This document shows positions 6,917-31,045 of a stretch of 46,305 bases of DNA, piece after piece (position 1 is the stretch's first letter; each line of letters opens with the position of its first letter). Location: the NCBI GenBank assembly GCA_945867505.1, contig CAMBIM010000003.1, forward strand, positions 1 to 46,305, written 5' to 3'. Both the position numbers and the translations under genes were made by a program. Source of the DNA: Chitinophaga pinensis. Its GTDB lineage: Bacteria > Bacteroidota > Bacteroidia > Chitinophagales > LD1. Below the pieces are notes generated by a model, which was given only the letters and a program-made list of their open reading frames with translations, was not told the DNA's origin and made no database searches.

Positions 6917-6981
6917 TGATTATTGTCATTCTTTCATTTGACTTAACTCAGCATGACTTACCGTTTTCTCAAGGATATTTG
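6917..6981 (+). promoter_or_regulatory. tandem Crp/Fnr-type boxes plus -7 promoter element for mlaE
   Basis: TGATTATTGTCA (6917-6928) and TGACTTAACTCA (6939-6950), then GATATTTG (6974-6981), similar to TAnnTTTG. Confidence 0.7.
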
Positions 6982-6993
6982 ACAAAAGAATAA

Positions 6994-7824
6994 GTGGAAA
7001 ATAATCCAGCCGAAACAACTCCTGCTAAAAAACAATCAGAGCCAATTTGGGTTTCTGTTTTACCTGAAGAATTTCGCGATTTTTTAAATGAGGTTGGTGA
7101 AATAGTGCGATTTGTGATGCGGTTTTTTCGCGAGGTTTTTATGCCTCCTTATGAGTTGAAGGAAATCTTTCACCAGTCGTATGAAATTGGTTATCGCTCA
7201 TTGCCGTTGGTGGCTTTAACCGCATTTATTATTGGTTTGGTTCTCACTTTGCAATCGCGCCCCACATTGGCACGTTTTGGTGCTGAATCGTGGTTGCCTG
7301 CTATGGTAGGTATCAGTATTATACGCGAGATAGGTCCTGTAATTGTGGCGTTAGTATGTGCCGGTAAAATTGGTTCTAGTATTGGTGCCGAGTTGGGTTC
7401 AATGAAGGTGACCGAGCAGATAGATGCAATGGAAGTAAGCGGCACCAACCCGTTTAAATATATTGTGGTTTCGCGCATTATCAGCACTACTTTCATGATT
7501 CCTATTTTAGTAATTATGGGTGATGCTGTTGCGTTAATCGGTTCTTTTATTGCCGTTAAACTCACTAGTGCCATTAGCATTACGCTATTCTTTAATCAGG
7601 TATTTGAAAGCACCGATTTCAGCGATTTTATACCTGCGTTTGTCAAAACATTTTTTTTTGGTTTTGCTATTGGTCTGGTAGGTTGTTACAAAGGCTACAA
7701 TTCGAAAAAAGGAACCGAAGGGGTTGGCGAGTCGGCAAATTCATCTGTGGTGATTGCCTCGTTGCTTGTGTTTATTATTGATTTAATAGCTGTTCAAATC
7801 ACCCAATTTTTCGGGTATTTATAA
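6994..7824 (+). CDS. mlaE: MlaE family ABC transporter permease
   Basis: IIREIGPVI, GAELGSMKVTEQIDAMEV and GTEGVGESANSSVV motifs. Confidence 0.95.
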   Translation: MENNPAETTPAKKQSEPIWVSVLPEEFRDFLNEVGEIVRFVMRFFREVFMPPYELKEIFHQSYEIGYRSLPLVALTAFIIGLVLTLQSRPTLARFGAESWLPAMVGISIIREIGPVIVALVCAGKIGSSIGAELGSMKVTEQIDAMEVSGTNPFKYIVVSRIISTTFMIPILVIMGDAVALIGSFIAVKLTSAISITLFFNQVFESTDFSDFIPAFVKTFFFGFAIGLVGCYKGYNSKKGTEGVGESANSSVVIASLLVFIIDLIAVQITQFFGYL

Positions 7825-8603
7825 TGGAAACAATTTCAAGAACCAACACAGAAGCGTTGCCGAAATACGGTGAATCTATTATAGAGATATCAAGCCTTTG
7901 TAAATCATTTGGCGATAATTATGTGCTGAACCAATTTAACCTAACGGTAAGGCGCGGAGAAAATGTGGTGGTGCTGGGCAAATCCGGTTGCGGTAAATCG
8001 GTGTTGATTAAATGTGTGGTGGGTTTGTTGAAATATGAAGAAGGTTCATTACAGGTTTTTGGAAAAGAAATTAATTCGCTAAAACAGAAAGAATTGGATG
8101 AAATGCGAGCGCGAATAGGTTTTGTGTTTCAGAGCAGTGCGCTGTATGATAGTATGACGGTTCGCCAAAATCTGGAATTTGCTTTGCGCAGACATGGCAA
8201 AGGAAAAACCAAACAGGAGGTGGATCAGTTGGTAGAAGAAATGTTGGATAATGTGAGTTTGGCAAATGCCATTAACCTAATGCCTTCTGAACTATCGGGC
8301 GGTATGCGTAAACGAATAGGATTGGCGCGTTCCCTTATTTTAAAACCCGAACTAATGCTTTATGATGAACCAACCACCGGTCTCGATCCTATTACTGCAG
8401 AAGAAATAAGCAATATGATGTTGGCTATGCAACATAAATACAATACTTCAAGCATCATTATTTCTCACGATATGCATTGTGCTCGGCTTACAGCTAACCG
8501 CTTGGCAGTAATGATTGACGGAATAAATTATGCCGAAGGAACTTTTGAAGAATTAAGTAAAATGAATGACCCAAAGGTGAATGCATTTTTCAAAAAACAA
8601 TAA
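7824..8603 (+). CDS. mlaF: MlaF-type ABC transporter ATP-binding protein
   Basis: Walker A GKSGCGKS, FQSSALYDS, LSGGMRKR, YDEPTTGLDP. Confidence 0.94.
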   Translation: METISRTNTEALPKYGESIIEISSLCKSFGDNYVLNQFNLTVRRGENVVVLGKSGCGKSVLIKCVVGLLKYEEGSLQVFGKEINSLKQKELDEMRARIGFVFQSSALYDSMTVRQNLEFALRRHGKGKTKQEVDQLVEEMLDNVSLANAINLMPSELSGGMRKRIGLARSLILKPELMLYDEPTTGLDPITAEEISNMMLAMQHKYNTSSIIISHDMHCARLTANRLAVMIDGINYAEGTFEELSKMNDPKVNAFFKKQ

Positions 8604-8606
8604 ACT

Positions 8607-9569
8607 ATGAACATAGAAACAATAAAGAATATCCGCCTTGGTTTTTTTGTACTTACAGGAACCGCCTTGCTTATTTTGGCCTTGTATTTTATTGGCAGCA
8701 ACAGTAATTTATTCAGTAAAACATTTAAGCTGTATGCAAAATTTGAAACCGTTAATGGACTGAAAAAAGGAAATAATGTACGCTATGGAGGCATTGATGT
8801 AGGCATCATAAAAAATATTGAAATTGTAAACGATACCACTATCCGAGTAGAAATGTCGGTGGAGGCTGACTTAAAAAAAGTGATTAGAAATAACTCAGCT
8901 GCCACCATAGGCACTGACGGATTGATGGGAAATAAACTTATTAATATATCTGCTGGTACGGCTGAGGCGGGTTTAATAAAAGACGGTGAAGAACTGGAAA
9001 GCTTGGCTTCACTAAATACCGATGAGATGCTGCGAACCTTAGATAAAACTAATAGAAACATCCTAGTTATTTCTGCCAACTTGAGAGACATCACCCAGAA
9101 AATTACAGATAGCCGCGGAACGCTTTATACTGTGTTGATGGATACAACTATTGCTGAAGGGTTGCGACATACATTGGGTAACATAGATGTAGTGAGCAAT
9201 AATATTTTGCAAATTTCGGACGACATTAATGATGTGGTATCGGAGGCGAAGAATGGTAAAGGGTTGTTGGGCACTTTGGTAAAAGATACCGTAATGGCTG
9301 AAGACCTTAGCAAAGCTGTTAAGGAGGTACGAACTGCGGGTGAACAAATCAATACTTCGGCCGGTGAGCTTAAAGTGATATTGGAAAAAGTAAATAATGG
9401 CGGAGGCACTCTATCCACTTTAATAAATGATACCACTTCGGCCAATAGTTTAAAACGAAGCCTTATAAATATTGATGCAAGCGCCAAGAAACTGCCCGAC
9501 TTAATGGAAGCGTTAAAGCATAATTTTCTTTTTAAAGGCTACTTTAAAAAGCAAGAAAAAAAGAAGTAG
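8607..9569 (+). CDS. mlaD: MlaD/MCE family substrate-binding protein
   Basis: N-terminal TM, GLKKGNNVRYGGIDVG, TDGLMGNKLINI, long helical C-terminus. Confidence 0.92.
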   Translation: MNIETIKNIRLGFFVLTGTALLILALYFIGSNSNLFSKTFKLYAKFETVNGLKKGNNVRYGGIDVGIIKNIEIVNDTTIRVEMSVEADLKKVIRNNSAATIGTDGLMGNKLINISAGTAEAGLIKDGEELESLASLNTDEMLRTLDKTNRNILVISANLRDITQKITDSRGTLYTVLMDTTIAEGLRHTLGNIDVVSNNILQISDDINDVVSEAKNGKGLLGTLVKDTVMAEDLSKAVKEVRTAGEQINTSAGELKVILEKVNNGGGTLSTLINDTTSANSLKRSLINIDASAKKLPDLMEALKHNFLFKGYFKKQEKKK

Positions 9570-9704
9570 AATAGCCACAACGTTGAGGCATAAAAAAGGG
9601 CAGAGTATCACTAAAGAGTTTTTTTTGTTGCACACGCTTTTCTCGAAAGAAACATATGCCCATTGGGTTAAACAAGATAACCAACGTAGTCTTCTTAAGA
9701 TATA

Positions 9705-12092
9705 CTAACTCATTTTTTTGCCCGAATTCCATTTCCAATTGCGGATTTCAGGTAGGTCTTCGCCATGCATTTCAATATAGGCTTTATGGTCTAGCAACTT
9801 GTTGCGGATGTATTGTTTGATGTTTGCCCCCTTGGAACCTAAGTGTGGCAAATGGTCTATAACATCGGCAGCTAGGTGAAAGCGGTCAAGGTTGTTCATT
9901 ACTACCATGTCGAAAGGGGTGGTAGTAGTACCCAGCCCTTTGTAACCGCGCACATGTAGGTTGTGGTGGTTGGTTCTGCGATATGTGAGACGATGGATAA
10001 GCAATGGGTAGCCATGAAAGGCAAAGATGATAGGTTTGTCTTTTGTGAAAAGCGCATCGAAATCATTGTCATTGAGTCCATGCGGGTGTTCACTGGGTGG
10101 TTGAAGCGTCATCAGGTCAACCACATTGACTAAACGAATTTTAATTTCGGGCAAATGTTCGCGTAAAATCTGTACGGCAGCAATGGTTTCTAGCGTTGGG
10201 ACATCTCCCGCACAAGCCATTACCACATCAGTTTCGTCCCCTTCGTCATTACTCGCCCATTCCCAAATACCTAATCCAACAGCGCAATGTTTTATTGCTG
10301 AATCTATATTCAGCCACTGCATTTCGGGTTGTTTGCCAGCAACTATTACATTAATATAATTACGGCTACGCAAACAGTGGTCGGTTACAGAGAGGAGTGT
10401 ATTCGCATCGGGCGGAAGATAGATACGGATAATGTCGGATGTTTTGTTTGCTACCACATCTAAAAAGCCCGGGTCCTGATGGCTATTGCCATTGTGGTCT
10501 TGTCTCCATACGTGAGAGGTAAGCAAATAATTCAAGGAAGCAATCGGTTGCCTCCACGGTATTTTATTGGCTACCTGTAGCCATTTAGCGTGTTGGTTGA
10601 ACATTGAAGCGACTATATGAATGAATGCTTCATAACACGAAAACAGACCATGTCTGCCGGTCAGCAAATAGCCTTCCAGCCAACCTTCGCACAAATGTTC
10701 GCTTAGCACTTCCATTACTCTTCCATCAGCAGAAACATGTTCATCGGTTTTCAGAATTTGGGCAGTGGAAGTGCGAGTAGTAATATCAAACAAGGCAGAG
10801 AGGCGGTTGGAGGCGGTTTCATCGGGACCGAATATTCTAAAGTTTCTTTTTTCCCAATTCAGTTTCAATATATCGCGCAGAAAAATTCCCATGGTGAAGG
10901 TTGCCTGTGTTTTTATCGTGCCCGGTTCAGCCACCTCAATCGCATTTTTTCTAAAGTCTGGCATTTCTAAATCGTGTAAAAGAAGCCCGCCATTGGCGTG
11001 TGGATTATCACCCATTCGCCTTTTACCTTTCGGTGCAAGTTCGGCTATTTCAGGAATCAGTTTTCCTGCTTCATCAAAAAGCTCTTCGGGTTTATAGCTT
11101 TTCATCCATTGCTCCAAAATGGTGATGTGCTCCGGCTTTGTGACCAGTTCAGCCAGCGGCACCTGATGCGCGCGCCAGGTTCCTTCCACCTGAATACCAT
11201 CCACCATTTCGGGACATGTCCATCCTTTGGGTGTGCGGAAAACAATCATAGGCCATTGGGGTCGCTTAGTAAATCCGTTGGTGCGAGCTTCGTTTTGTAT
11301 TTGTTTAATTTCTGAAACAATAATGTCCAGCGTTTTGGCAAGCAACTGATGGACTTCTTCGGGCACATCACCTTCCACAAAGTGAGGTTTATAACCATAG
11401 CCCAGGAAGAGTTGTTCCAATTCATCTTTTGGAATTCTTGCCAGCACGGTCGGGTTCGCAATTTTGTATCCGTTCAAATGAAGGATAGGAATAACCGCAC
11501 CATCCTGCACAGGGTTTAAAAATTTATTCGAGTGCCAACTTGCGGCAAGCGCACCCGTTTCGGCTTCACCATCGCCAATTACACAAGCCACCAACAAATC
11601 GGGATTGTCAAATACTGCTCCGAAAGCATGCACCAATGAATAACCTAGTTCACCTCCCTCATGAATAGAACCGGGTGTTTCGGGAGCTACATGGCTTGGG
11701 ATTCCACGGGGGAAAGAAAACTGCTTGAAAAGTTTTTTCATGCCCTCTTCGTCTTCGCTAATATTCGGATAGAATTCACTGTAGGTTCCTTCAAGGTAAG
11801 TATTTGCTACCAAGCCAGGACCGCCATGGCCAGGACCGGTAACATAAATCATATTCAAATTGTGTTGCTTGATAATGCGATTGAGATGAACATAGAGAAA
11901 GTTGAGACCCGGTGTAGTGCCCCAATGACCTAACAAACGCGGCTTAATGTGTTCAAGTGTCAGTGGCTTTTTCAGCAGAGGATTATCATACAAGTAAATC
12001 TGCCCGACCGACAAATAATTAGCCGCACGCCAATAGGCATTCATCTTTTGAAGTAATTCTGGAGATAAAGAATTAATGTTTTCTGCTTCCAT
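9705..12092 (-). CDS. xfp: xylulose-5-P/fructose-6-P phosphoketolase
   Basis: [47 protein letters not shown]. Confidence 0.97.
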
Positions 12093-12097
12093 AGTAA

Positions 12098-13297
12098 TTA
12101 GCTTTTAACGGAGTGATTTAATAACTCACAAACTGCTATTGCAATCATCAACTCCTCGTTTGTTTTAATAATACGCACACACACTTTGCTTGTATCGGTA
12201 GATATAATTGCTTCATTTTTTTCGTTTCTTGGTTCATCCAATTCAATTCCTAAAAATTGAAGTCCATCGCATATTCGTTTGCGTACTTCAGGGGAATGCT
12301 CGCCAATTCCTGCTGAAAATATAAGGGTGTCTAAGCCACCGAGCACTGCGGCATAAGCGCCAATCCATTTTTTTGTTTGGTAGCAAAATAATTCCACAGC
12401 TTCAGCTGCACGGTGGTCAGTGCCTTCCTGTTCCAACAACTCCCGCATGTCTGCATTTGTTTCTGATATACCCAGCAGACCAGATTCGTGATTGATGAGA
12501 TGATTAAACTGTTTAGCATTCATCTTTTCGCTCTCTATTAAATACAATCCAACACCGGGGTCAAGGTCACCGGTACGCGTTCCCATCACTAAACCTGATG
12601 TAGGCGTAAAGCCCATGCTGGTATCCATGCTCTTCCCTTCTTTTACCGCGGCAAGACTTGCTCCATTGCCAAGGTGCGCTAGTATTATTTTGCCTTGTGC
12701 AGTTTCATTACCTGCTACACGTTTAAGTTCTTGCATCAGATAAGCATAAGACAAACCATGAAAGCCGTAGCGCTGAATGCCCTTATCACTGAATCTTCGC
12801 GGAATGGCTAATTGTTTTGCAACGGATGGCATGGAAGCATGAAAAGAAGTATCGAAACAAGCTATTTGCGTTAAATCAGGATATTGTTTTTGGAAAATTT
12901 CTATGAGCATTATTGCTAGAGGTAAATGTACCGGGTCATATACACTAATTTGTTTTAATTCAGCCAGTAGTGTAGCAGTAATCGGTTCTGGGTTGGTATG
13001 TTTCATTCCATGAACTATTCGATGCCCTATCGCTTCAATGGAAACAAACTCTTGTTGCTTTTCAAGCCATTTTATAAGAAGGTTTGCCGCTTCACTATAA
13101 TCAGCAGTGGGTAGGGGGATGCTGTTTTGCTGAGCGGTCATTGAGTTTGTAAAACGAAGTTGTGCGTTTTTAGAACCCATGCCTTCTATCTCTCCATGAA
13201 ACAATTGTAGAGGAGGTTCTTCTTTGTTGAATAAAGCAAACTTAATGCTGGAGGAACCGCCATTGATGGTGAGCACAGAATTTCTATTTGCTTTCAT
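12098..13297 (-). CDS. ackA: acetate kinase
   Basis: [46 protein letters not shown]. Confidence 0.96.
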
Positions 13298-13356
13298 AAT
13301 TGTTTCTTTGAGCTTCTGAATTAGTACTGGTGTAAAGCAAAATCGAGTAACCCCAA

Positions 13357-13896
13357 TTAAAGATTTTTTAAAATGAAATCTACCCGCTCGTGGGGCAGAA
13401 GTAACGGAACATGTATTATAGGAAAGGGCAATGATTTATAAACGTTAGTAATGATGGCATGTATTTTTTTTTGCGCTGTCTCATCTTCTCTTCGTGCATA
13501 ATCCTGCACTAACGGGAGGCAGTCAAGAATAAATACTTTTTTGTAGGCTATCGAGTGCATGGCTTCTGCAAGCTTAGGGTCTACGATAATGTTCAGATAG
13601 CGGTAGTATGCGAGTGCATCGGGAATGGCTCGGTCCAGAAAAACAATATCATCTGGCGAAAGTTGCTTCTCCAGTTCAATCTGCATTTCAAGAATTTTCA
13701 ATTGAAAATCTTCCTGATTTTTTCTTACTTCTTATACTGTTTTGCCATTCAAGCGTTGCATATCAAAGTAATGGCGTGCGTTCTCAATTGTAGTTTTGTA
13801 TCCTCTTGCTCGCAGTAAATTAACCATCGTAGTTTTTCCAGAACCCGGACCACCTGTTATAACATACCAATTAGTTGATTTTTTTGTATCCTGCAT
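13357..13896 (-). pseudogene. AAA_28 / NadR-like P-loop ATPase with an in-frame TAA at codon 55
   Basis: ATG at 13896 gives MQDTKKSTNWYVITGGPGSGKTT..GKTV*EVRKNQ..FLDRAIPDALAY. The stop is at 13732-13734 and both halves share one frame. Confidence 0.85.
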
Positions 13897-13910
13897 TTTA
13901 CCGTTATTCG

Positions 13911-14028
13911 CAAAGATGGCAAGAAATAATAGCTATGTAAATGATATTCGAAAATCTTGGTTGTGACAAAACTCACCTCCTGTTTTGACTTGCATCACCT
14001 TATGCAGATGCCATTCCCTCCATCTTTG
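13911..14028. promoter_or_regulatory. divergent promoters sharing phased Crp/Fnr-type boxes
   Basis: Minus-strand -7 CATCTTTG (13911-13918); degenerate box TGATATTCGAAA (13942); TGACAAAACTCA (13964-13975); TGACTTGCATCA (13986-13997); plus-strand -7 CATCTTTG (14021-14028). Confidence 0.72.
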
Positions 14029-14058
14029 TAACATTAATAACGATTAAAAACAAACAAA

Positions 14059-14436
14059 ATGAAAGCAAGTATCAATTCTTTACACCATCAGGAAAACGAC
14101 TGGTTACGTGAACTCGAATTTTACAAACAGGAACTTATTGTCCTTACTGACCGGCTTGAAGAAGTAGCAGCAAAAAATACTTCAAACGAAACCATGGCAC
14201 AGGTAGAGCATTTTCAAAACCGATTTATACTTTTGAAGGAGCAGCACGATATTCTTCGCCACGACAATGCAGCCCGTTCTGCAAGATTAAATGAAATGGC
14301 AAAAGCAATTCCAACACATATTGAAGAAAAGTTTGTGGCAGACAATGATGATATGCATAAACGTATGGTCGACTTCTTTTCTTCATTCCGCGATACGCGT
14401 TTTGAATTCTATAAATTCCTTTCAAAAGTTCTATAA
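14059..14436 (+). CDS. hypothetical helical/coiled-coil protein
   Basis: 125 aa, all-helical pattern (LHHQENDWLRELEFYKQEL..VEHFQNRF), His-rich, preceded by an A-rich leader. Confidence 0.8.
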   Translation: MKASINSLHHQENDWLRELEFYKQELIVLTDRLEEVAAKNTSNETMAQVEHFQNRFILLKEQHDILRHDNAARSARLNEMAKAIPTHIEEKFVADNDDMHKRMVDFFSSFRDTRFEFYKFLSKVL

Positions 14437-14479
14437 GCCCTTTTTAGCGGTCGGTTGAACCTTTTGAAAATATAAATCC

Positions 14480-16153
14480 ATGCTTTTTAATTTAAACTTT
14501 AAAGTTTTAAGGCGATACCGGCAAATTATTGGGATATTGATTAAATACGGTTTTCAGGATATCCTTTCTGATGCTGGTATGTCGTTGAGAGCGAGAGTGG
14601 TGGAGACTTTTCTTCCGAAAGATTTGGTGGAAAAAATTCACAGCCATTCTAAATCGGAAAGAATGCGCATGGCGGTGGAGGAATTGGGCACTACCTATAT
14701 TAAACTGGCGCAAATACTCAGCAACCGACCCGATGTTATTCCTTTAGAGTTGGTTGCTGAGTTTGAAAAACTGCAAACACATGTTCCTCCGTTTCCGGGT
14801 GAGGAGGCGCGAAAAATTATTGAGCAGGAATTAGGAAAAAGCATTGACGATGTTTTCATGAAGTTTGAGGACACTCCATTTGCCAGTGCATCTATTGCGC
14901 AAGTGCACAAAGCCAAATTGAAAGATGGTACGCAAGTAGTTTTGAAAGTGCGCAGGCCGGGCATAACCGAAAAGATAGAGCTAGACATTGTCATCATGAA
15001 TTATTTCGCGGGCAAAATGGAGGAGCGTGGCTATTTAGTCAATCTTGACCCTGTGGGTATGGTTCGCGCGTTTGATGTTTCGATACATAAGGAACTCGAC
15101 CTTACTCATGAGGGATATAACCTTCAACGCTTTGCGGGTAATTTTGAAAACAGCGAATTGGTTTTTGTTCCTAAATACTATCCGCAACTCACTACTAAGA
15201 AACTTCTCACTATGGAGTTTGTGCAGGGCGTACACCCATACGACACCGAAGGTTTGCAACGCATTGGCGCAAACAGTCATGAGCTTGCCAAGAACGGTAT
15301 GTTCGCTTTGTTTCAGCAGATATTTGAATTTGGCTTTTTCCATGCTGACCCGCATCCGGGAAATCTTTTTGCCATGCCTGATAACAAAGTTTGCTTCATT
15401 GATTTCGGTATGATGGGCACTGTGCTGAAAGCTGATGTAGAGTTTTTTGCGGATATAGTTTATGGAGTGACTACAAAAGATTCTAAAACACTTATCTGGG
15501 GTTTGAAAAATATTGCGGTGAGTCAGCAGTTTGAAGGCAACAAGACTTTTGAGTACGAAGTAGAAGACCTCATTAACGATTATCATGCTTTGCCGGCTGA
15601 TAAAATGAATATGTCTGACCTCTTTAATCGTTTACTTGAATTGGTTAATCGGTACACTATCAAAATGCCTCCAGATTATTTTCTGCTATCTAAAGCTATG
15701 ATAACGATTGAAGGAGTAGGGCACCGGTTAGACCCCAACCTGAATATCATTGAGGAGTTAACCCCACACATCAATAAAACTTTAGCCGATGAGTTTGGCT
15801 TAATGGCCATTCTGAAACGCTTTTTGGGTTCTGCGCGTGATTCCCTTTCGCTGATCGAAAATTTTCCGCGCGACATACGCGATATTATCGGCAAGATAAA
15901 AAGAGGAGAACTCAAAGTATCTATCGAGCATGAAGGTTTGGAAGACATTACACACAAAATTGATTTGGCAAGCAATCGAATTGCAGGTGGATTTCTTATC
16001 GGCTCTATCTTAATGGCTTCGGCTATTCTGATTGCTGTAAAATTTCCACCACTGTATCAGCACGTTTCTATTTTCGGAGGAATTGGTTTTGTATTGGCTA
16101 ACATTCTTGGAATAAGAATGCTGTTTACAATTTTTAGAAGCAAGAAATATTAA
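14480..16153 (+). CDS. AarF/UbiB/ABC1 family atypical kinase
   Basis: LGTTYIKLAQ, ASASIAQVH, VLKVRRP, FFHADPHPGN, IDFGMMG, C-terminal TM pair. Confidence 0.93.
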   Translation: MLFNLNFKVLRRYRQIIGILIKYGFQDILSDAGMSLRARVVETFLPKDLVEKIHSHSKSERMRMAVEELGTTYIKLAQILSNRPDVIPLELVAEFEKLQTHVPPFPGEEARKIIEQELGKSIDDVFMKFEDTPFASASIAQVHKAKLKDGTQVVLKVRRPGITEKIELDIVIMNYFAGKMEERGYLVNLDPVGMVRAFDVSIHKELDLTHEGYNLQRFAGNFENSELVFVPKYYPQLTTKKLLTMEFVQGVHPYDTEGLQRIGANSHELAKNGMFALFQQIFEFGFFHADPHPGNLFAMPDNKVCFIDFGMMGTVLKADVEFFADIVYGVTTKDSKTLIWGLKNIAVSQQFEGNKTFEYEVEDLINDYHALPADKMNMSDLFNRLLELVNRYTIKMPPDYFLLSKAMITIEGVGHRLDPNLNIIEELTPHINKTLADEFGLMAILKRFLGSARDSLSLIENFPRDIRDIIGKIKRGELKVSIEHEGLEDITHKIDLASNRIAGGFLIGSILMASAILIAVKFPPLYQHVSIFGGIGFVLANILGIRMLFTIFRSKKY

Positions 16154-16180
16154 ATTCGATAATAACCTGACAGTTAGAGT

Positions 16181-17008
16181 TTACTCCAACGTTTTAAATG
16201 CCTTTGGCAGATAGCTGATTATATCAGCAGCCGTCATAGCTGTTTCGCCTAAATCTATTTTGGCTAAATCTCCGGCAAGTCCGTGTATGTATACACCCAG
16301 CACCGCAGCATCGGCTGAAGAATAGCCTTGTGCAAGAAGCGAAGTAGTAATACCTGTTAGCACATCACCGCTCCCACCTTTTGCCATACCGGGGTTACCG
16401 GTGTTGTTGATGTAAGTTTTGCCATCTGGAGAAACTACGGTTGTATTTGCACCTTTCAGCACCGTTACAAGTTTACGTTTTACCGAAAGCTCTGTGAGCT
16501 TTTCCATCTTTTCATTTTCGTTATTCCAATCACCAACCAGTCTTTTAAACTCGCCTACATGCGGAGTAAGCACCGAATTTTCCGGAATAATTTCAATCAG
16601 CTTTTCATCAACTGAAATAATATTCAGAGCATCGGCATCTAATACTATAGGCTGACGAAACTGTTGCAATAAGTTTTTTAGAAATTCAACCGTGTTATCC
16701 GAAGTTCCTATTCCGGGGCCAACAGCGATGGTAGTAAAGGCAGTTAAATCAGGCACCTTGTGCAATTCATTTTCTCCGCTAACAATTACCATTGCTTCGG
16801 GATTACGGATTTGCATGATATCATAACCACATTTTGGAATGAGCGCAGTTACTAAACCTGCACCACTATGTAAGGCTGATTTTACAGAGAGAACAGCCGC
16901 GCCCATTTTGCCGTAACTACCTGCAGCAATTAATAAATGGCCATAACTTCCTTTATGCGAAAACTTATCGCGTTTTTTAAATTGGGGAAGGGTAAGGTTT
17001 GCGGCCAT
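16181..17008 (-). CDS. nnrD: ADP-dependent NAD(P)H-hydrate dehydratase (stand-alone)
   Basis: SHKGSYG, GAGLV, GPGIG, DADALN, TPHVGEF, GGSGDVL, HGLAGD. Confidence 0.92.
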   Translation of the reverse strand: MAANLTLPQFKKRDKFSHKGSYGHLLIAAGSYGKMGAAVLSVKSALHSGAGLVTALIPKCGYDIMQIRNPEAMVIVSGENELHKVPDLTAFTTIAVGPGIGTSDNTVEFLKNLLQQFRQPIVLDADALNIISVDEKLIEIIPENSVLTPHVGEFKRLVGDWNNENEKMEKLTELSVKRKLVTVLKGANTTVVSPDGKTYINNTGNPGMAKGGSGDVLTGITTSLLAQGYSSADAAVLGVYIHGLAGDLAKIDLGETAMTAADIISYLPKAFKTLE

Positions 17009-17014
17009 TAAAAG

Positions 17015-18076
17015 TTAATTGAGCAAATTCTTCAGCTTGCTTTCATCCAGCACAGAAATCTTTCCCTCTTTAATTTCAATCAGCTTTTCGTTCTTAAAAT
17101 CGCTAAGGGTGCGGATTAAACTTTCGGTGGCTGTGCCTACTACCTGTGCTAAATCTTCGCGCGGTATTTCCAGCTTAGGTTTATCGCCCGGAGCTTTTTT
17201 AAATTTATCATACACCTGCAACAAACCAACGGCTACGCGTTTGCGCAGCGAGTTGTAAGCAAGATTCAGCAAGGCTTCTTCGCGCTCGGCTAAGTTGTGT
17301 GAAAGCAATTTGATGAAACTCTTTGCCACCTGTGCATCAATATTCAGCAGTGCATAAAAATCAGATTTTGGAATTAGCATTACTTCACTGTCTTCCATTG
17401 CTTCGGCATTATCGGCATAGGCAGTTTCTTCCAGCAACGCGGTGTAGCCCATAAAGTCGCCATCGGTATGTATGGCGGTAATCAACTCCTTACCATCATC
17501 GTTCATGCGGAACGACTTTACTTTTCCTTTTACCACAAAATATAAATACGATGGACGGTGACCATGCGTATAAATCATCTGTTTCTTTTTGTAGCTCTGC
17601 ACTTCGCGGTCGCCTTTGGTTAAATCTACTTTGCCATTTGCGCGGGCTTGGTTTAAAAAGTCATTTACCCCCTCTGCACTTGCCGCAAACTCTGTTTTTA
17701 GTAAATCATTTTTCTTTAAGCGGACTTCTACTGCATTCAATAATTCAATATCATCAAACGGTTTGGTAATGTAGTCATCGGCACCCATTTCCATTCCCTT
17801 TCTAAAATCTGTTCTATCTGCTTTTGCCGTAAGGAAGATAAACGGAATGGCACTGGTCTTTGGGTTTTTACTAAGCATGTGCAACACTCCGTAGCCATCT
17901 AACTCAGGCATCATAATATCGCAGATGATTAAATCCGGATTTTCCTTCTGCACCAGGTCAACTCCCTTTTTACCGTTAGGGGCAGCAAAAACCGTGTAGT
18001 TAGCCAGTTCAAGAATTTCTTCAATGTTTTCGCGTACTGCTTTGTTGTCTTCTATCAATACAATTTTCTTGCTCAT
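17015..18076 (-). CDS. response regulator fused to Crp/Fnr cNMP-binding and HTH domains
   Basis: Receiver domain (IED, CDIMMP, FLTAK, KPF), a Crp beta-roll, and HTH REDLAQVVGTATESLIRTLSDFK. Confidence 0.93.
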   Translation of the reverse strand: MSKKIVLIEDNKAVRENIEEILELANYTVFAAPNGKKGVDLVQKENPDLIICDIMMPELDGYGVLHMLSKNPKTSAIPFIFLTAKADRTDFRKGMEMGADDYITKPFDDIELLNAVEVRLKKNDLLKTEFAASAEGVNDFLNQARANGKVDLTKGDREVQSYKKKQMIYTHGHRPSYLYFVVKGKVKSFRMNDDGKELITAIHTDGDFMGYTALLEETAYADNAEAMEDSEVMLIPKSDFYALLNIDAQVAKSFIKLLSHNLAEREEALLNLAYNSLRKRVAVGLLQVYDKFKKAPGDKPKLEIPREDLAQVVGTATESLIRTLSDFKNEKLIEIKEGKISVLDESKLKNLLN

Positions 18077-18081
18077 CTGGG

Positions 18082-19359
18082 TTACTGATTAGGTATGGTT
18101 ATAGTAAATATAGTTCCGTTATTTTCTTCGCTTTGCAATTCAATTTTGCCGTTAAGCAGTTCAATGTATTTAGAAACAATGTGTAAGCCAAGCCCTGTAC
18201 CCTGAATGTTTGCTGCATTGCGGGCGCGGAAAAAACGTTCGAACAAATGTTCCTGATCTTCTTTCGAAATTCCTATGCCGCTGTCTTTTACAGAAAGCAC
18301 CACTTGCCCGGTGGTGTTTGTACACGAAATTTCAATCACCCCATCGTCAGGCGAAAACTTAATGGCATTTGAAATCAGATTCAGCATGATGTTTTTCATC
18401 AATCGCTTATCGGTATAAAAATCGTCTATACCGGTATGCGCAAACTCCAACTGCTGACCGGGCTTTAGAATTTCCTTTACATCGCTCATAAAGTCCTCCA
18501 TAAACTCCCTGCATTGTACCACATCTTTTTTGGCTTCTACCAAACCCTCTTCCAGTTTGCCCAGCGATAATAAATCTTCTAACATCGAGTTAAGGTGCTG
18601 CACCCCTTCTTTAATACGCGCTACGTGCTTATCGCGCTTTTCCTGCTCTTCGGTTTTGGTGTATTTGCCTAATAGCGCTGCCGATGAAAGCACAGCCGCC
18701 AAAGGTGTGCGGAACTCATGCGATACGGTAGATACAAAGCGCGATTTTAAATCGCTCAATTCTTTTTCTCTTTCCAGCGCGCGTTCTAAATCATCTTTTG
18801 AGTTTTCCAGTTGCGCCAGTGTTTCGCGGAGCATGATGGTACGATCCTGCACCTTCTGTTCCAGTTCGCTGTTCAGCTTTTTTATTTCAGAAGTTACCCG
18901 CTCTAAGTCCGCTTGTTGCTGACGCTGAATTTCTTCATGTTGCTTACGTACGGTTATATCAATAACAAAAGCAATTACAAAGGTTTCGTCATTCAAAATG
19001 TAATGACTCAAACTTACTTCTACCGGAAAAACGCTGCCGTTTTTTCGCTTGGCATGCAAATCGCGTCCGGCACCCATATTGCGGTTAATGGGGTTGGCAT
19101 GAAACGAATGGCGGTGATGCACATGCTCTTCTCTTATATCCTGCGGTAGTAGTATTTCTATGGGTTGGCCAACCATTTCATCTTTAGTAAAGCCAAACAT
19201 CTTCTCGGCACAGGGGTTTACCAAAACTATTTGCCCCCCCCGGTTAGCTAACACAATGCCCTCGGTGGCGTTCTCAAACAGAGAAGCCATCATTACATTA
19301 TTATTTATTTCGGGTAGCACTTTTTGGGTGAACATACATGCTGCTGGCTTATCAAACAA
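18082..19359 (-). CDS. cytoplasmic PAS-domain sensor histidine kinase (FixL-like); true start may be a downstream ATG
   Basis: PAS domain with LLPQDIREEH..MGAGRDL..RKNGSVFPVEVSLS, H-box SHEFRTPL, and N/G1/F/G2 boxes; no TM segments. Confidence 0.93.
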   Translation of the reverse strand: MFDKPAACMFTQKVLPEINNNVMMASLFENATEGIVLANRGGQIVLVNPCAEKMFGFTKDEMVGQPIEILLPQDIREEHVHHRHSFHANPINRNMGAGRDLHAKRKNGSVFPVEVSLSHYILNDETFVIAFVIDITVRKQHEEIQRQQQADLERVTSEIKKLNSELEQKVQDRTIMLRETLAQLENSKDDLERALEREKELSDLKSRFVSTVSHEFRTPLAAVLSSAALLGKYTKTEEQEKRDKHVARIKEGVQHLNSMLEDLLSLGKLEEGLVEAKKDVVQCREFMEDFMSDVKEILKPGQQLEFAHTGIDDFYTDKRLMKNIMLNLISNAIKFSPDDGVIEISCTNTTGQVVLSVKDSGIGISKEDQEHLFERFFRARNAANIQGTGLGLHIVSKYIELLNGKIELQSEENNGTIFTITIPNQ

Positions 19360-19391: not shown

Positions 19392-19435
19392 CAAACGTAT
19401 GGTGAAAGTGTTATGGCAACAGATGATTGTTGTCA
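19392..19435 (-). promoter_or_regulatory. promoter with one Crp/Fnr-type box upstream of the kinase-regulator operon
   Basis: Perfect -7 TACGTTTG on the minus strand (19392-19399) and TGATTGTTGTCA (19424-19435). Confidence 0.7.
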
Positions 19436-22417: not shown

Positions 22418-22576
22418 GTGAATAGTTTTAATGATTTAATTAATAATGCACAAACGTTGATTTTTGCTGGTGAAACACTGCTGATAAATAACAGAATAGG
22501 AGATGATAATGCTCACCCCCACAGAAGTAAAACAGTGGCTTAAGCAAAAAGAATGAAAGCAACCCTTCCTTCTCCG

Positions 22577-22648: not shown

Positions 22649-22858
22649 AACAATGCTGTTTTAATTAATAACAATATTGAAAGGAATTAAAGCAGTATAG
22701 TTATTGCCTAAAACACTATTATTTTATATAAAAACAATAGTGTTTTAATTCATTTTATAGTTGTAATAAATAATAACAACGCTGTTATTATTTATTACAA
22801 TGTTGTTTTGTTTTGTAGCAATGCTGTTATTTTATAAAACAACATTGTTATATATTTG
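22649..22858. repeat. ten phased degenerate 21-bp units with quasi-palindromic core AACAAT(A/G)(T/C)TGTT
   Basis: Units start at 22649, 22670, 22691, 22712, 22733, 22754, 22775, 22796, 22817 and 22838, with no indels. Confidence 0.85.
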
Positions 22859-22932
22859 GGCATCTTGTTTATATGCAAAAACGTGCTTTCTTTTGCAATA
22901 GTTGCTCTATTTCTTGACCCAACTAAGCGTTT

Positions 22933-23604: not shown

Positions 23605-23637
23605 GGTAGGGATTAGGCGATGTAACAAAGTGACAAT

Positions 23638-23684
23638 TACAATGCAAACAGCCGAAGAAATTCTCTTCGGCTGTTTGCATTGTA
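23638..23684. terminator. 21-bp perfect inverted repeat between convergent genes
   Basis: TACAATGCAAACAGCCGAAGA-aattc-TCTTCGGCTGTTTGCATTGTA; no long U tail. Confidence 0.7.
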
Positions 23685-23764
23685 GATCCCCTCCCGGGGA
23701 AATTGAAGATTCGATAATTGCTTTATAAATAATCAGTGCATTATCATTTTGTGGTATTAATAGT

Positions 23765-26037: not shown

Positions 26038-26042
26038 AATAG

Positions 26043-26801: not shown

Positions 26802-26831
26802 GGGCTAAAAGTAAAGGAAATAATTTCCGAA

Positions 26832-28232
26832 TCAGAGGCTAACCTCCTGATGTAATTCAGGAATCTCTACATCAGCAAATCCTTTTCTCATTAATTTGCT
26901 TCTGAAAGTTTGCTGCACATCATACTCTCCGTGCACAAGAAATAATTTCTTTATGGCTTGTGGATTTTGGCAGGCAATAAACTGACATAAATCTTCGTAA
27001 TCACCGTGTGCGCTCATGCTGCGCATTACCTCAATTTCTGCCCGCACTTCGTAAGGCTCACCAAAGAGGGTAACATCTTTATAATTGCGCATTAACTTTC
27101 CTCCAAGCGAGCGTGGTTCGCAATAACCTACAATCAAAATAGTATTTCGTTTGTCGCTTATTACATTTTTGATGTGGTGCTTTACTCTTCCTGCATCAGC
27201 CATGCCCGATGCTGAAATGATTACGCATGGTTCTTTGCGTTCGTTCAAGGCTTTCGATTCTTCTACGTTTTGTATGTAATGCAAACGTTTGAAATCAAAT
27301 GGTTCTTTATCGCGTTCCAGAAACTCCTGAAATTTTTTGTTGAGTTCTGACTGATGTTTTTTCATCACCGCTGTAGCCTCTACCGAGAGCGGAGAGTCTA
27401 CAAAAAAGTCTATTTCCGGTAAAGCCTTTGAAATTTCTAATCGGTTCAGCGCATAAACCAGTTCCTGTGTTCTTCCCACACTGAATGCAGGAATAACCAG
27501 TTTCCCTCTTTTCTTCAAGCAGGTATTTACAATGGCTTCCAGCAATTTATTGTCTTTCACAGCCATATCTTCATGCAAGCTGTCTCCGTAGGTTGATTCC
27601 AAAATCAGGTAATCGGCTTGCGGAAAAACTTCGGGTGAGCGAAGCAACTCATCGTTGTATCTGCCTACATCGCCACTAAAAGTTAAAGTGGTTTCCTTTT
27701 TGTCATCACTAATTTTCAAATTAACTACTGCACTGCCAATGATGTGACCTGCATCAGTAAAACAAAACGAAACGCCTTCTTTCAAAACTTTCTTTTGGTT
27801 GTAATTCACTAACTCAAAATGTTTGAGTGCATTGTGTACATCATTTTCTGTATAAAGTGCTTCAAAAGCAGATTCCCCACGCTTGGCTCTTTTTTTATTA
27901 TGATAAAAAATGTCCTGTTTTTGTATGTGAGCAGAATCGAGCAGAAGAATTTTGCTTAGGTCATAAGTTGCAGGTGTGCAGAATACTTTCCCTCTATAAC
28001 CTTCGGCAATCAGTTTCGGAATCAAACCGCAATGGTCAATGTGCGCATGAGATAAAATCAGAAAATCAACTTCATTTGGTTCAAACCCCCAATCGCGATT
28101 CAGGCCGTCCGCTTCTTTCGGGTTGCCCTGAAACATACCGCAGTCCAATAAAATTTTTGTACCGTCATTTAATTCAAGAAGATGTTTGCTACCGGTAACC
28201 ATTCGCGCAGCACCGTGGAAAGAAATTTTCAT
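26832..28232 (-). CDS. metallo-beta-lactamase / beta-CASP RNA-processing nuclease
   Basis: LLDCGMFQG, SHAHIDHCG, AGHIIGS, ESTYG, PAFSVGR, SAHGD, VHGE. Confidence 0.93.
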   Translation of the reverse strand: MKISFHGAARMVTGSKHLLELNDGTKILLDCGMFQGNPKEADGLNRDWGFEPNEVDFLILSHAHIDHCGLIPKLIAEGYRGKVFCTPATYDLSKILLLDSAHIQKQDIFYHNKKRAKRGESAFEALYTENDVHNALKHFELVNYNQKKVLKEGVSFCFTDAGHIIGSAVVNLKISDDKKETTLTFSGDVGRYNDELLRSPEVFPQADYLILESTYGDSLHEDMAVKDNKLLEAIVNTCLKKRGKLVIPAFSVGRTQELVYALNRLEISKALPEIDFFVDSPLSVEATAVMKKHQSELNKKFQEFLERDKEPFDFKRLHYIQNVEESKALNERKEPCVIISASGMADAGRVKHHIKNVISDKRNTILIVGYCEPRSLGGKLMRNYKDVTLFGEPYEVRAEIEVMRSMSAHGDYEDLCQFIACQNPQAIKKLFLVHGEYDVQQTFRSKLMRKGFADVEIPELHQEVSL

Positions 28233-28241
28233 ACTGATTAT

Positions 28242-30701
28242 TTATCTGGCTAAACTACTTTGAACTTTTGTTTCATCGGAGAAATATTTTTTTCCTGCCA
28301 CGGTTGAAGCCAAAGTGGTGAACAGAATTATAGTAACAGAACTAACCGGCATTAGCACCGCAGCAACCAAAGGACTCATAGTTCCCTGCACCGCGAAGAA
28401 CATACCCAGAACATTATAGCAAAGCGAAATCACAAAACTTGCTTTAATGATGTTTACTCCGGCTTTGGAATAATTCAACAACGTTTCAATTTTATCAAAC
28501 TGCGATGAATCAATAATACCATCGCAAGCCGGAGAAAAATTATTTACATCATCGCTAATGGCAAGGCCAACCTCTGCCTGTTTCAATGCACCGGCATCGT
28601 TTAATCCATCGCCAACCATCATTACACTTTTGCCCGATGATTGTATCTTCTTTATCACATTTAGTTTATCAGCGGGTTGCTGATGAAATACAAGATTCTT
28701 TTCTTTGACATATTGCGAAAGGAAATTCTTTTCAGCATCATTATCGCCACTTACCACATACGTTTCAAACCGCGAGCGAAGCTTATTCATCAACTTACCA
28801 AAGCCTTTTCGGTATTCGTTCTTTACTAAAAAGAAACCGCGCACTTTGCCGTTAATGCCTACATAAACTTTTGAAGCGTGACGAAAATCCGAAATATGAG
28901 AGCCATCGGTGTTCACTTCACCGCATAAAAATTTCTTAGAGCCAATACGAACACAGTTTTCATCTACCCAACCTTCAATTCCTTTTCCTTCCTCCTCTTT
29001 GAAATCTTCGGTGGTAATAACTTTAACTCCCTTCAAATGCTCATATACTTTCTTACTCAACGGATGGGAGGAATGATAAACAAGAGATTTAACCAGTTGG
29101 ATTTCATAATCTGAAAGGCTAATCTTGTCTGTTGTCTGATATTCGATTTTCGCATTCTTAGTATTCGTCAGCGTTCCGGTTTTGTCAAATACAATCGAAT
29201 TTATTTGAGCCAGCTTTTCAATGGTGATGGCATTTTTTAAATAAATTTTATTTCTGCCGAGTATTCGTAAGATATTTCCAAGTGTAAATGGAGAAGATAA
29301 GGCAAGAGCGCAGGGGCAGGTGATAATAAGCAATGATGTAAATGCGTTGAGTGCTTTGTGTAAATCTTTGTTCCACCAATATGCTGAGGCGATAAAGGCA
29401 ATAGCTATTACGATAGGAGTGAACCAGTTGCTCACTTGGGTTGCCAAGGATGTGATGTTATCTTTTCCCTCTTTAGTAAAAGCAGAATCGTTCCAAAGTT
29501 GTGTGAGGTAACTGTGCGAAACATCTTTCATTACATCTAATTCAATGGCTCCGCCTAACTGCTTGCCACCGGCATAAATTAAGTCGCCACTGTTTTTAGT
29601 AATAGGCGTTGCTTCACCTGTTACAAAGCTATAGTCAATATTTCCTTTGCCCTTTATCAGTACTGAATCAGCAGGAATCAATTCCATGTTGCGCACTAAC
29701 ATTCTATCACCTAAACGAACATTGGTAAGCGGAATGGTAGTTTCGTTTCCGTTGTTGATAGTAGTAACCGCCACCGGGAAATACGATTTGTAATCGCGCT
29801 CAAACGAAAGTGTATCGTAAGTTCTGTTTTGAAACAATCTTCCAATCAACATCAGCATCACCAAACTAGCCATGGTATCGAAATAACCGCCACCAGAGTG
29901 AGAAAATATTTCGTAACTGCTTCTGATAAACATAGCCAGAATGCCAAGCACAATAGGGAAATCCATATTGAGTGCCTTTTGTTTCATTGCGCTCCAAGCC
30001 GAAACAAAAAACTCTTGGGCACAATAAAACAGAATGGGAAGAGCAAGACCAAAATTCAAATACCCAAAGAATTTGCGAAGTGGAGTTTCGGTTAATGCAT
30101 CTATTCCTAAGTATTCAGGAAAAGACAGCAGCATGATATTGCCAAAGCAGAAAAATGCAACACCTATTTTTAAATAGTATTTGCGTAAGTGATGTTGTTT
30201 TTCTTTACGCGTTAAATCGTTGAGATTGATGTGCGGATCATATCCAAGCGAAGCCAGCGTTTCTACAACCTGCCGTAGATTCAGTTTAGAATTATCGAAA
30301 GTGATGTGCACTTCGCGTTTCAAAAAGTTGACGTTGCTACGCTTTATACCATCTTTTATTTTAAAAAGATTCTCCAACAGGAATATGCACGAGCTACAAT
30401 GAATTTGCGGCATGTAAAACGTAACTGTAGAAATATTTCCATCTTTAAACTGAATCAATTGTTCGGCAACCTGTTCATCTTCCAAGTAAGCAAACTTCTT
30501 GGCATTCACTTGTTTGCTGAATGAACTGCCAGGCGAGGCATTCATATCATAATAGCTACACAAATTGTTCTCATCCAAAATTTCGAAAACAGTTTTGCAG
30601 CCGTTGCAGCAGAACTTATGTTGATGAGCAACAATGCTACCATCGCAGCTTTCGCCACAATGGTAGCAAGTTAAAGATTCTTTATCCTTTACTGCGTTCA
30701 T
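28242..30701 (-). CDS. ccoI: Cu-translocating P1B-type ATPase (CcoI/FixI)
   Basis: N-terminal CYHC..FCCNGC, IHCSSC, TGE, CPC, DKTGT, GDGLND, YN, MPVSS. Confidence 0.93.
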   Translation of the reverse strand: MNAVKDKESLTCYHCGESCDGSIVAHQHKFCCNGCKTVFEILDENNLCSYYDMNASPGSSFSKQVNAKKFAYLEDEQVAEQLIQFKDGNISTVTFYMPQIHCSSCIFLLENLFKIKDGIKRSNVNFLKREVHITFDNSKLNLRQVVETLASLGYDPHINLNDLTRKEKQHHLRKYYLKIGVAFFCFGNIMLLSFPEYLGIDALTETPLRKFFGYLNFGLALPILFYCAQEFFVSAWSAMKQKALNMDFPIVLGILAMFIRSSYEIFSHSGGGYFDTMASLVMLMLIGRLFQNRTYDTLSFERDYKSYFPVAVTTINNGNETTIPLTNVRLGDRMLVRNMELIPADSVLIKGKGNIDYSFVTGEATPITKNSGDLIYAGGKQLGGAIELDVMKDVSHSYLTQLWNDSAFTKEGKDNITSLATQVSNWFTPIVIAIAFIASAYWWNKDLHKALNAFTSLLIITCPCALALSSPFTLGNILRILGRNKIYLKNAITIEKLAQINSIVFDKTGTLTNTKNAKIEYQTTDKISLSDYEIQLVKSLVYHSSHPLSKKVYEHLKGVKVITTEDFKEEEGKGIEGWVDENCVRIGSKKFLCGEVNTDGSHISDFRHASKVYVGINGKVRGFFLVKNEYRKGFGKLMNKLRSRFETYVVSGDNDAEKNFLSQYVKEKNLVFHQQPADKLNVIKKIQSSGKSVMMVGDGLNDAGALKQAEVGLAISDDVNNFSPACDGIIDSSQFDKIETLLNYSKAGVNIIKASFVISLCYNVLGMFFAVQGTMSPLVAAVLMPVSSVTIILFTTLASTVAGKKYFSDETKVQSSLAR

Positions 30702-30740
30702 TGCAGATTATTTTTAAAACACAGTTCCAGGAATGGTAAA

Positions 30741-30947
30741 TTACAAATGAATTTCCTTATCGGAGTTTGTGCTGATGCCAAACATGGCGTAAAGCGGACA
30801 CCACATAACTACCGAAGTAGCCAAAAAAATGGTGGTAGGAATTACCCATAGCCAAGCATAACCGCCTGCTAAAATGGCATAACAAATAGATACAATAAAG
30901 AGAAGAATTCTGAACCAGCCATCAAAGGCACCAACATTTACTTTCAT
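30741..30947 (-). CDS. DUF2892/YgaP-like small membrane protein
   Basis: MKVNVGAFDGWFR..WCPLYAMFGIST; ATG at 30947 preferred. Confidence 0.88.
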   Translation of the reverse strand: MKVNVGAFDGWFRILLFIVSICYAILAGGYAWLWVIPTTIFLATSVVMWCPLYAMFGISTNSDKEIHL

Positions 30948-30980
30948 AATTATCGTTTTAGGATTTAAAAATTGATGGCG

Positions 30981-31045
30981 CAAAGGTTATTTGCGTGTAG
31001 CGCATAGTCAATGATTTTTCTCAAATATGGATATGATTCAAGTCA
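30981..31045 (-). promoter_or_regulatory. tandem Crp/Fnr-type boxes plus -7 element for the DUF2892-ccoI operon
   Basis: Minus-strand AACCTTTG (30981-30988); TGATTTTTCTCA (31012-31023); TGATTCAAGTCA (31034-31045). Confidence 0.72.

Follow-up and report, generated by a model that had tools for sequence, protein, structure and literature searches.

Paired TGA-N6-TCA boxes in a Chitinophaga pinensis contig as predicted operators of a low-oxygen regulon read by a receiver-FNR fusion

A 46,305-base-pair (bp) contig of Chitinophaga pinensis (CAMBIM010000003.1, assembly GCA_945867505.1), analyzed here in its entirety and called the window below, carries three promoters in which the box TGA-N6-TCA occurs twice at one and the same spacing. 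It also encodes a cbb3 oxidase cluster, a haem-PAS histidine kinase and a regulator in which a receiver domain (REC) is fused to an FNR-type DNA-binding module. Are the boxes operators, which protein reads them, and to what signal would they respond? The first-pass annotation of this DNA had proposed that the local receiver-Crp protein occupies tandem boxes and controls a low-oxygen regulon, an interpretation that our comparisons supported. We consider it likely that the boxes are the operators of a low-oxygen regulon, read by a kinase-fed REC-FNR hybrid that would activate transcription in class II fashion. The genome to which the window belongs as contig C3 (G000) comprises 2,938,865 bp in 309 contigs and is 73.9% complete.

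Paired boxes and their distance from the promoter

The three pairs lie at 6917/6939, 13964/13986 and 31012/31034, exactly where the first-pass annotation had placed them, and in each the start-to-start distance is exactly 22 bp. TGA-N6-TCA boxes are frequent in the window as a whole (20, compared with 10.82 ± 3.12 in shuffled sequences, none of 100 shuffles reaching 20). The genome holds 620 of them, with ten pairs whose boxes are no more than 80 bp apart. Three pairs have the 22-bp distance, all on this contig, and none are found at 21 or 23 bp; from the 620 boxes we estimate that about 0.13 pairs would be expected at any one spacing. Furthermore, exactly 23 bp separate the proximal box of every pair from an 8-mer resembling a -7 element: GATATTTG at 6974-6981 (+), CATCTTTG at 14021-14028 (+) and AACCTTTG at 30981-30988 (-). 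The distance was as first described; the likeness to TAnnTTTG was partial, the three elements reading nAnnTTTG with the first T unmatched.

We then scanned the genome with a relaxed pattern, composed of a perfect distal box, N10, a proximal box reduced to N9-TCA, N23-24 and NNNNTTTG. With N10 it gave six matches, five of them inside the window, compared with 1, 1, 0, 0, 0, 0, 0, 1, 0, 0, 0 and 0 matches at spacings of 4-9 and 11-16; the genome scan that had been suggested as a check of the 22/23-bp architecture came out in its favor, with zero or one match at each of twelve other spacings. The sixth match (C35:7015) falls inside a coding region and was rejected as a site.

Conservation of the design was assessed in five near-complete congeners, with the reversed pattern as control. 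The exact paired pattern occurs at 31 sites in these genomes, compared with none for the control; all 31 lie outside long open reading frames (ORFs), 23 have NNNNTTTG 22-25 bp away in one direction, and 11 fall within 21 kb of the regulator gene. The 367 kb surrounding the regulator in ten congeners contain 13 exact 22-bp pairs, every one intergenic, and in a genus-wide survey of spacings from N0 to N30 the 34-mer with N10 made up 22 of the 75 plus-strand pairs listed. Pooling of loci gave 39 unique sites, 30 of which have NNNNTTTG at 22-25 bp in exactly one direction, 25 of these at 23 bp. Alignment of the sites yielded TGAt-n-a-n-a-ATCA as the consensus of the distal box and t-TGAC-N5-TCA-T as that of the proximal box, with a ninth position that was never T in 30 sites. 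Across the order, sampled with 121 genomes (120 of them at least 90% complete), we counted 355 paired sites and 16 reversed-pattern controls. As the fixed 22/23-bp geometry is kept before the same respiratory and stress genes across genus and order, we regard the boxes as real operators: judged from sequence, they are conserved operator sites before respiratory and stress genes. A separate array in one congener (L034, from G001:C7, 14420-14599) has nine TGA-N6-TCA boxes at an exact 21-bp period; this tandem repeat has nothing to do with the 22-bp operators.

The position of the boxes relative to transcription can be estimated from promoters of Flavobacterium psychrophilum with mapped start sites, in which TAnnTTTG occupies -12 to -5 according to the available portion of PMC9723704. 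Set at that position, the -7 element would place the proximal box at about -47 to -36 (center -41.5) and the distal box at about -69 to -58 (center -63.5), so that the proximal box would lie just upstream of the -33 region and not over it, as the first-pass annotation had it. Position -41.5 is the class II position of CRP/FNR activators. From one center to the other it is two helical turns, which puts both boxes on the same face of the DNA. At the expected -33 place, TTG was found in none of 30 oriented sites; a -33 element that is missing where the boxes lie is consistent with activation.

The receiver-FNR fusion, its kinase and the predicted regulon

The candidate reader of the boxes is encoded in a sensor-regulator operon on the minus strand (16181..19359; assigned by Pfam, PDB matches and alignment), which consists of the haem-PAS histidine kinase (19359-18082), the REC-FNR fusion regulator (18076-17015) and an NAD(P)HX dehydratase (17008-16181). 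Pfam divides the regulator into REC (PF00072, 104.3 bits with a cut-off of 30.2, residues 5-117), cNMP_binding (PF00027, 76.3 bits with a cut-off of 27.5, residues 160-245) and HTH_Crp_2 (PF13545, 49.3 bits with a cut-off of 27, residues 280-351). The receiver has E9-D10, D53 in LIICDIMMP, T83 and K105, residues whose phospho-acceptor roles we read from the sequence, and the C-terminal module matches the Crp/Fnr structures 2gau, 4ev0, FixK2 (4i2o) and Aliivibrio FNR. By domain content the protein is both a Crp/Fnr-superfamily factor and a two-component response regulator. Proteins of the Crp/FNR type dimerise, and the Glu and Arg of their recognition helix read the TGA half-site. The helix TESLIR aligns with LETVSR of FixK2 and VETISR of FNR, Glu to Glu and Arg to Arg, in agreement with the E..R already noticed at first pass; the Ser of FNR is replaced by Ile.

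The combination of domains may be a new one. NCBIfam has no full-length model for the regulator, and its best partial matches, FixK (NF050806, 73.1 bits with a cut-off of 300) and Fnr (71.4 bits with a cut-off of 228), score far below threshold; public sources give the protein only generic names ('response regulator', 'CRP/FNR family'). We found no description of a response regulator of the Crp/Fnr superfamily with this architecture in the full-text literature searched, and the same searches gave no paper on FixL-like sensors, on fusions of receiver and FNR or on FNR boxes in pairs for Bacteroidota, with the limit that the architecture may have been listed in an earlier census of response regulators. 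Full-length orthologues with 67-94% identity are present in 23 of 24 other genus genomes first sampled; none was found in G009, which is 67% complete. In six of the ten congeners examined, the kinase-regulator pair adjoins the cco cluster.

Sister families that lack the fusion have instead a homologue of about 235 residues with an N-terminal Cys motif, and alignment showed that the 120-residue receiver domain and a linker stand in the place of this motif as it is found in the FNRs of G027, G033 and G034. The recognition helix GTATESLIRTLSDF is identical in fusions from eight of nine genomes aligned (GTAKESVIRTLSDL in G032), and the three Cys-cluster FNRs have a near match to it, GTATETAIR or GTVKETAIR. 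In G027 the FNR gene is followed by paired boxes, a gene for a 162-residue protein, ccoI, a second set of paired boxes and ccoNO.

The kinase has one PAS domain, HisKA and HATPase_c (Pfam). Its PAS domain (residues 23-143) has as its 13 best PDB matches exclusively haem domains of FixL or EcDOS/DosP (E-values from 4e-14 to 1e-11); in the alignment, the proximal His of FixL/DosP corresponds to the His of REEHVHH, and the distal Arg of FixL to the Arg of GAGR. By domain set and by this alignment the kinase is a sensor of the FixL/DosP haem-PAS type, and haem binding and a response to O2 are predicted. At 29 of 30 loci the regulator gene has a kinase homologue as its neighbor.

Upstream of the kinase gene there is a single box, TGACAACAATCA in the minus-strand reading (19424-19435), 24 bp from the -7 element TACGTTTG (19392-19399, -), as the first-pass annotation had described it. 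The single box implies autoregulation. One is also present upstream of the kinase gene at L002, L005, L015, L021, L024 and L027, in a scan that covered 200 bp; the longer N-terminus of the kinase at most other loci puts their promoter outside this range. The REC-FNR gene has paired boxes directly beside it, within about 20-55 bp, in one family of the order (G086:C70:23865-23898, G121:C9:64172-64205 and G074:C7:90677-90710), which suggests direct autoregulation there.

Where do the paired boxes of the window lie? The first pair (distal box TGATTATTGTCA, 6917-6928; proximal box TGACTTAACTCA, 6939-6950; both +) and its -7 element precede the GTG start codon of mlaE at 6994, and the predicted target is the operon mlaE-mlaF-mlaD (6994..9569, +; Pfam MlaE, ABC_tran and MlaD). 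The second pair is a divergent shared operator (13964..13997). Box 13986-13997 is proximal for the promoter of the 14059 gene, whose predicted targets are a 125-residue protein without family match (14059-14436, +) and a UbiB/ABC1 kinase (14480-16153, +; Pfam), and box 13964-13975 is distal for both divergent promoters. On the minus strand, a degenerate proximal box TTTCGAATATCA (13942-13953), which keeps only its TCA half, lies 22 bp from box 13964 and 23 bp from another copy of CATCTTTG (13911-13918), in accordance with the first description of this promoter. As the degenerate box is in 22-bp phase with those at 13964 and 13986, three phased boxes would serve two divergent promoters. The predicted minus-strand target is the operon ATPase-ackA-xfp (9705..13896; Pfam and ORFs), with ackA at 13297-12098 and the phosphoketolase gene xfp at 12092-9705. 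Upstream of ackA, the gene for the AAA_28 P-loop ATPase consists of two ORFs, one of 54 residues that includes the P-loop (13896-13732) and one of 114 residues (13701-13357), a break caused by a frameshift or else by an error of assembly. A second, partial ackA copy on contig C65 of the same genome (1-693), 78% identical to that of the window, could be a paralogue or stem from a strain or contaminant contig.

The third pair (proximal box 31012-31023, distal box 31034-31045, -) and its -7 element precede a predicted target operon, DUF2892-ccoI (28242..30947, -; Pfam), that encodes a DUF2892/YgaP-like membrane protein (30947-30741) and a ccoI/FixI-type Cu P-type ATPase (30701-28242). The first-pass annotation had listed five promoters in the window and we count six, the relaxed scan having added one with a distal box at 22504-22515, a degenerate proximal box at 22482-22493 and, 23 bp further on, the -7 element AACGTTTG at 22451-22458 (all -). 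Downstream of it is a gene for a protein with a type IX secretion system (T9SS) tail (22417-20957, -; Pfam Por_Secre_tail).

The cbb3 oxidase cluster itself occupies 1..6818 (+) and by Pfam comprises ccoNO with its 5' end cut, ccoP, ccoG, FixH, DsbD_2, two unknown genes and TauE. The 5' half of ccoN and the region upstream of it, which includes the promoter, were not found in the G000 assembly by blastn; the only other match, on C55, proved to be a conserved tRNA. Near C55:920 one single box, TGAGAAAAATCA, is flanked by a tRNA gene on one side and, on the other, by a gene whose translation resembles a PhyH-like Fe(II)/2-oxoglutarate dioxygenase. Elsewhere in the window, a 131-residue protein (37730-38125, -) matches the VHL beta domain (PF01847, E 2.9e-10, 40.5 bits with a cut-off of 21), unusual in a bacterium and here near a predicted hypoxia regulon, and an open frame of more than 2665 residues (38309-46303, +) runs past the contig end.

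The relatives supply the oxidase promoter that the assembly lacks. A scan upstream of ccoNO had been suggested at first pass; in the relatives it showed, at all six loci examined, a ccoS-ccoN promoter with a perfect distal box, a proximal N9-TCA half-site, 23 bp and nAnnTT(T/C)G, which is the design of the window's ATPase-ackA-xfp promoter. Target calls were made with Pfam on genes flanking the sites. In all five congeners, paired boxes precede a cytochrome c of about 165 residues, a 277-residue tandem Usp protein, and DUF2892 and/or ccoI; the DUF2892-ccoI operon has paired boxes in G003, G008, G011, G017, G021, G024 and G001. In two of the five (G021 and G024), as in the window, they precede mlaE. 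Further targets include HSP20, OmpA, a PAS kinase, several T9SS/PKD proteins and the 141-residue protein that ends the cco cluster. This last protein (window 5247-5672, +; L034:1449-1874) has no Pfam or NCBIfam match and adjoins the regulator in most congeners; its gene in G001 is solitary and stands directly behind a paired-box promoter (23 bp, GATATTTG). The ackA gene is rare in the genus (5 of 40 genomes). In G003 its locus has a perfect pair, 23 bp and CAGCTTTG, followed by an operon for a 125-residue protein, ackA and xfp, the first product of which is 58% identical to that of the 14059 gene in the window; the ackA locus of G020 has a distal box and a half-site, at 24 bp. For HSP20, only a weak tblastn match was obtained in the G000 assembly.

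Taken together, these observations suggest the following mechanism. The cytoplasmic kinase would sense O2 through its haem-PAS domain, be activated at low O2, and phosphorylate the receiver domain of the regulator encoded beside it. The C-terminal two thirds of this regulator would act as an FNR-type effector barrel and Crp-type helix-turn-helix, the receiver taking the place of the N-terminal Cys cluster, so that phosphorylation would bring about the dimerisation that FNR undergoes upon acquiring its iron-sulfur (Fe-S) cluster. Activated dimers would bind TGA-N6-TCA, two of them on one face of the DNA, 22 bp apart and probably cooperatively, and would recruit RNA polymerase in class II fashion at promoters with a -7 element and no -33 element. 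At weaker promoters the distal box would be perfect, and of the proximal box only the TCA half nearer the promoter would remain. The regulon thereby switched on would comprise cbb3-oxidase maturation (DUF2892-ccoI, and ccoS-ccoNOP in relatives), the small cytochrome c and Usp proteins of the relatives, mlaEFD, the 125-residue protein with UbiB, the phosphoketolase/acetate kinase operon, the T9SS-secreted protein and the kinase-regulator operon itself. The low-oxygen assignment fits the combination of a FixL/DosP-like haem-PAS kinase with cbb3-oxidase targets, and the available portion of PMC9723704 reports induction of the cbb3 oxidase in Flavobacterium under O2 limitation.

Which signal, and which protein at the boxes

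An alternative, which we consider unlikely, is that the fusion binds the boxes in response to a signal other than O2 (NO, CO, redox or another PAS ligand), or that it represses at some sites. Haem-PAS domains of the FixL/DosP type bind CO and NO too, and dimers bound upstream can repress at tandem-FNR promoters of E. coli; the divergent region at 13942-13997 has three phased boxes. The targets, however, are those typical of FNR/FixK low-O2 regulons, namely the cbb3 oxidase, ccoI, cytochrome c, Usp and HSP20; in sister lineages these boxes and targets go with a Cys-cluster FNR; and the boxes lie where the -33 element is missing.

Somewhat less probable still is that the boxes are real operators read by another protein, the fusion having other targets. 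One candidate is a second Crp-type protein with Glu and Arg in its helix (HREAVSR), named the C221 type after its contig and encoded in both G000 and G011, where a single TGA-N6-TCA stands just after its gene; the other is a stand-alone FNR-like paralogue missing from the assembly, of the kind that some congeners have (helix TETLVRNLSDF in G001, further FNR-like matches in G024 and G017). At E<=1e-8, however, the fusion is the only FNR-clade match in G000 and in G011, which is 100% complete and whose other HTH_Crp_2 matches are a C221-type protein (helix HREAISR), a SRIRKR-type protein and two unrelated proteins, and about a third of the congener sites (the 11 of 31 mentioned above) lie close to the fusion gene. 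The C221-type gene (C221:3790-4401 in G000) is located beside a sulfur operon (DUF2892-TauE-MBL/rhodanese-HMA-rhodanese), and the distance from its box to the promoter is not conserved (12 versus 23 bp). Orthologues of this regulator occur in 87 of the 121 genomes of the order, and in G000 an inverted repeat, AGTGATGC...GCATCACT, separates its gene from the sulfur operon.

The distribution of sites across the order separates the candidates further. Genomes with the fusion (59) have on average 4.37 paired sites, with at least one in 51; those with only a stand-alone FNR-clade match (41) have 2.07, with at least one in 31; and those with neither (21) have 0.57, with at least one in 5, figures that are descriptive and whose statistics are overstated since kin genomes are not independent. 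Where the FNR clade is present and the C221 type absent, the mean is 3.0 sites, with at least one in 15 of 20 genomes and 28 in G029; where the C221 type is present and the FNR clade absent, it is 0.71, with at least one in 3 of 7. Site counts follow the FNR-clade regulator and not the C221-type Crp paralogue, and the latter is disfavored as the binder by both the counts and the box distance. Across the phylum, the fusion was found in 34 of 251 genomes sampled; the carriers include families from other orders of the class and a single family that does not belong to the class, and in the two largest families of that sample the fusion was not found (0 of 51 and 0 of 41). That the pairs are a product of chance or composition, with no regulatory role, is effectively refuted: single boxes are common, at 620 in the genome, and one relaxed match (C35:7015) does lie inside a gene, but this reading, whose probability we put at next to nothing, would have to accommodate three pairs where about 0.13 are expected, 355 sites to 16 controls, and 31 of 31 congener sites that are intergenic, with a fixed distance to the -7 element.

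Several observations weigh against our proposal of a low-oxygen regulon read by the fusion, beginning with that non-independence of kin genomes. The paired design is not specific to the fusion, as genomes with only a Cys-FNR carry paired boxes too; 8 of the 59 fusion-bearing genomes have no perfect pair, and 5 of the 21 without an FNR-clade match do have pairs (5 in G156, 3 in G145, 2 in G088 and 1 each in G096 and G114). As G000 is 73.9% complete, another regulator could be missing from it. The haem-PAS domain could respond not to O2 but to NO, CO or the redox state. With respect to the promoters, the first T of TAnnTTTG is absent from the -7 elements of all three window pairs, 9 of the 39 unique sites have no NNNNTTTG at 22-25 bp, and the -12 to -5 position is taken from Flavobacterium, which belongs to a different order of the phylum. 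A genome scan for a perfect box paired with a one-mismatch box showed no enrichment at 22 bp (4 pairs, versus 1-12 at other spacings), and that pattern was therefore dropped in favor of the half-site design. Among targets, no box accompanies ackA in G016, the one box at the G023 locus stands at another distance, and the cytochrome c and tandem Usp targets of the relatives were not found in the G000 assembly by tblastn at 1e-8.

Relation to known oxygen regulators and meaning for Bacteroidota

The proposed circuit resembles FixL-FixJ-FixK in that a haem-PAS kinase senses O2 and a Crp/Fnr-type protein acts on TTGA-N6-TCAA-like boxes, there at fixNOQP and fixGHIS; among NCBIfam models the C-terminal module matches FixK best, and FixK2 (PDB 4i2o) aligns over the helix-turn-helix. 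FixK, however, has no sensory N-terminus and is controlled through its own transcription, whereas the window regulator carries a receiver and falls far short of the curated FixK model. An hFixL-FxkR-FixK chain has been described in alpha-proteobacteria, as the available portion of PMC7888657 reports. In the window, receiver and FixK-like DNA binder form one polypeptide, and the relay step in which FixJ or FxkR induces fixK is therefore absent; the rigid 22-bp pairs at Bacteroidota-type promoters are a further difference from the FixL-FixJ-FixK system.

With the [4Fe-4S] protein FNR of E. coli and Aliivibrio, the regulator shares PF00027 and HTH_Crp_2, the Glu and Arg of the helix, the TGA/TCA core and a respiratory regulon; the proximal site would lie near -41.5 if the -7 element is placed as in Flavobacterium. 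The regulator differs in having a receiver instead of the N-terminal Cys cluster and Ile for the helix Ser; moreover, the outer T and A of TTGAT-N4-ATCAA are not conserved in the paired boxes, and a further dimer site 22 bp upstream is here usual and not exceptional. The Cys-cluster FNRs of G027, G033 and G034 are closer, with their near-identical helix, 22-bp paired boxes and ccoI and ccoNO targets, yet they have the N-terminal C-x2-C-x8..C and no receiver, and share 36-37% identity over the common part. With no Cys cluster and with scores below the Fnr and FixK models, the system resembles FixL-FixJ-FixK or FNR and is a member of neither. Compared with the sigma-A promoter of Bacteroidota (-33 TTTG/-7 TAnnTTTG), the elements of the three window pairs end in TTTG and have A at position 2; unlike it, the 30 oriented sites have no -33 TTG, as expected of activator-dependent promoters.

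A broader claim, which we put forward tentatively and would rate just short of an even chance, is that these proteins represent a hitherto undescribed type of hybrid oxygen regulator with a wide distribution in Chitinophagales and other Bacteroidia. The type would condense the FixL-FixK pathway into one step and work from boxes whose centers fall at about -63.5 and -41.5, with 23 bp between the proximal one and the -7 element, at promoters that have no -33 element. A requirement for cooperative, tetramer-like binding that suits the sigma-A polymerase of Bacteroidota may underlie the rigid 22/23-bp grammar.

Aerobic Bacteroidota are abundant in soil, freshwater and wastewater, and we found no study in the full-text literature searched on how they (Chitinophagales, Cytophagales and relatives) sense oxygen. 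The present analysis offers a circuit concrete enough to test, in which sensor and regulator are both named and an operator rule predicts targets from sequence. Its core regulon would comprise maturation of the cbb3 oxidase, Mla lipid transport, Usp proteins and a small cytochrome c, joined in some strains by phosphoketolase/acetate kinase fermentation. The 22/23-bp geometry would be a rare readable case of an activator-dependent promoter architecture for the unusual sigma-A of Bacteroidota, and it could help to predict regulons and to build expression tools that respond to O2 in members of the phylum. From an evolutionary standpoint, a single type of DNA-binding module and operator grammar would take its input from an Fe-S cluster in certain lineages, whereas in others a haem kinase would supply it through phosphorylation.

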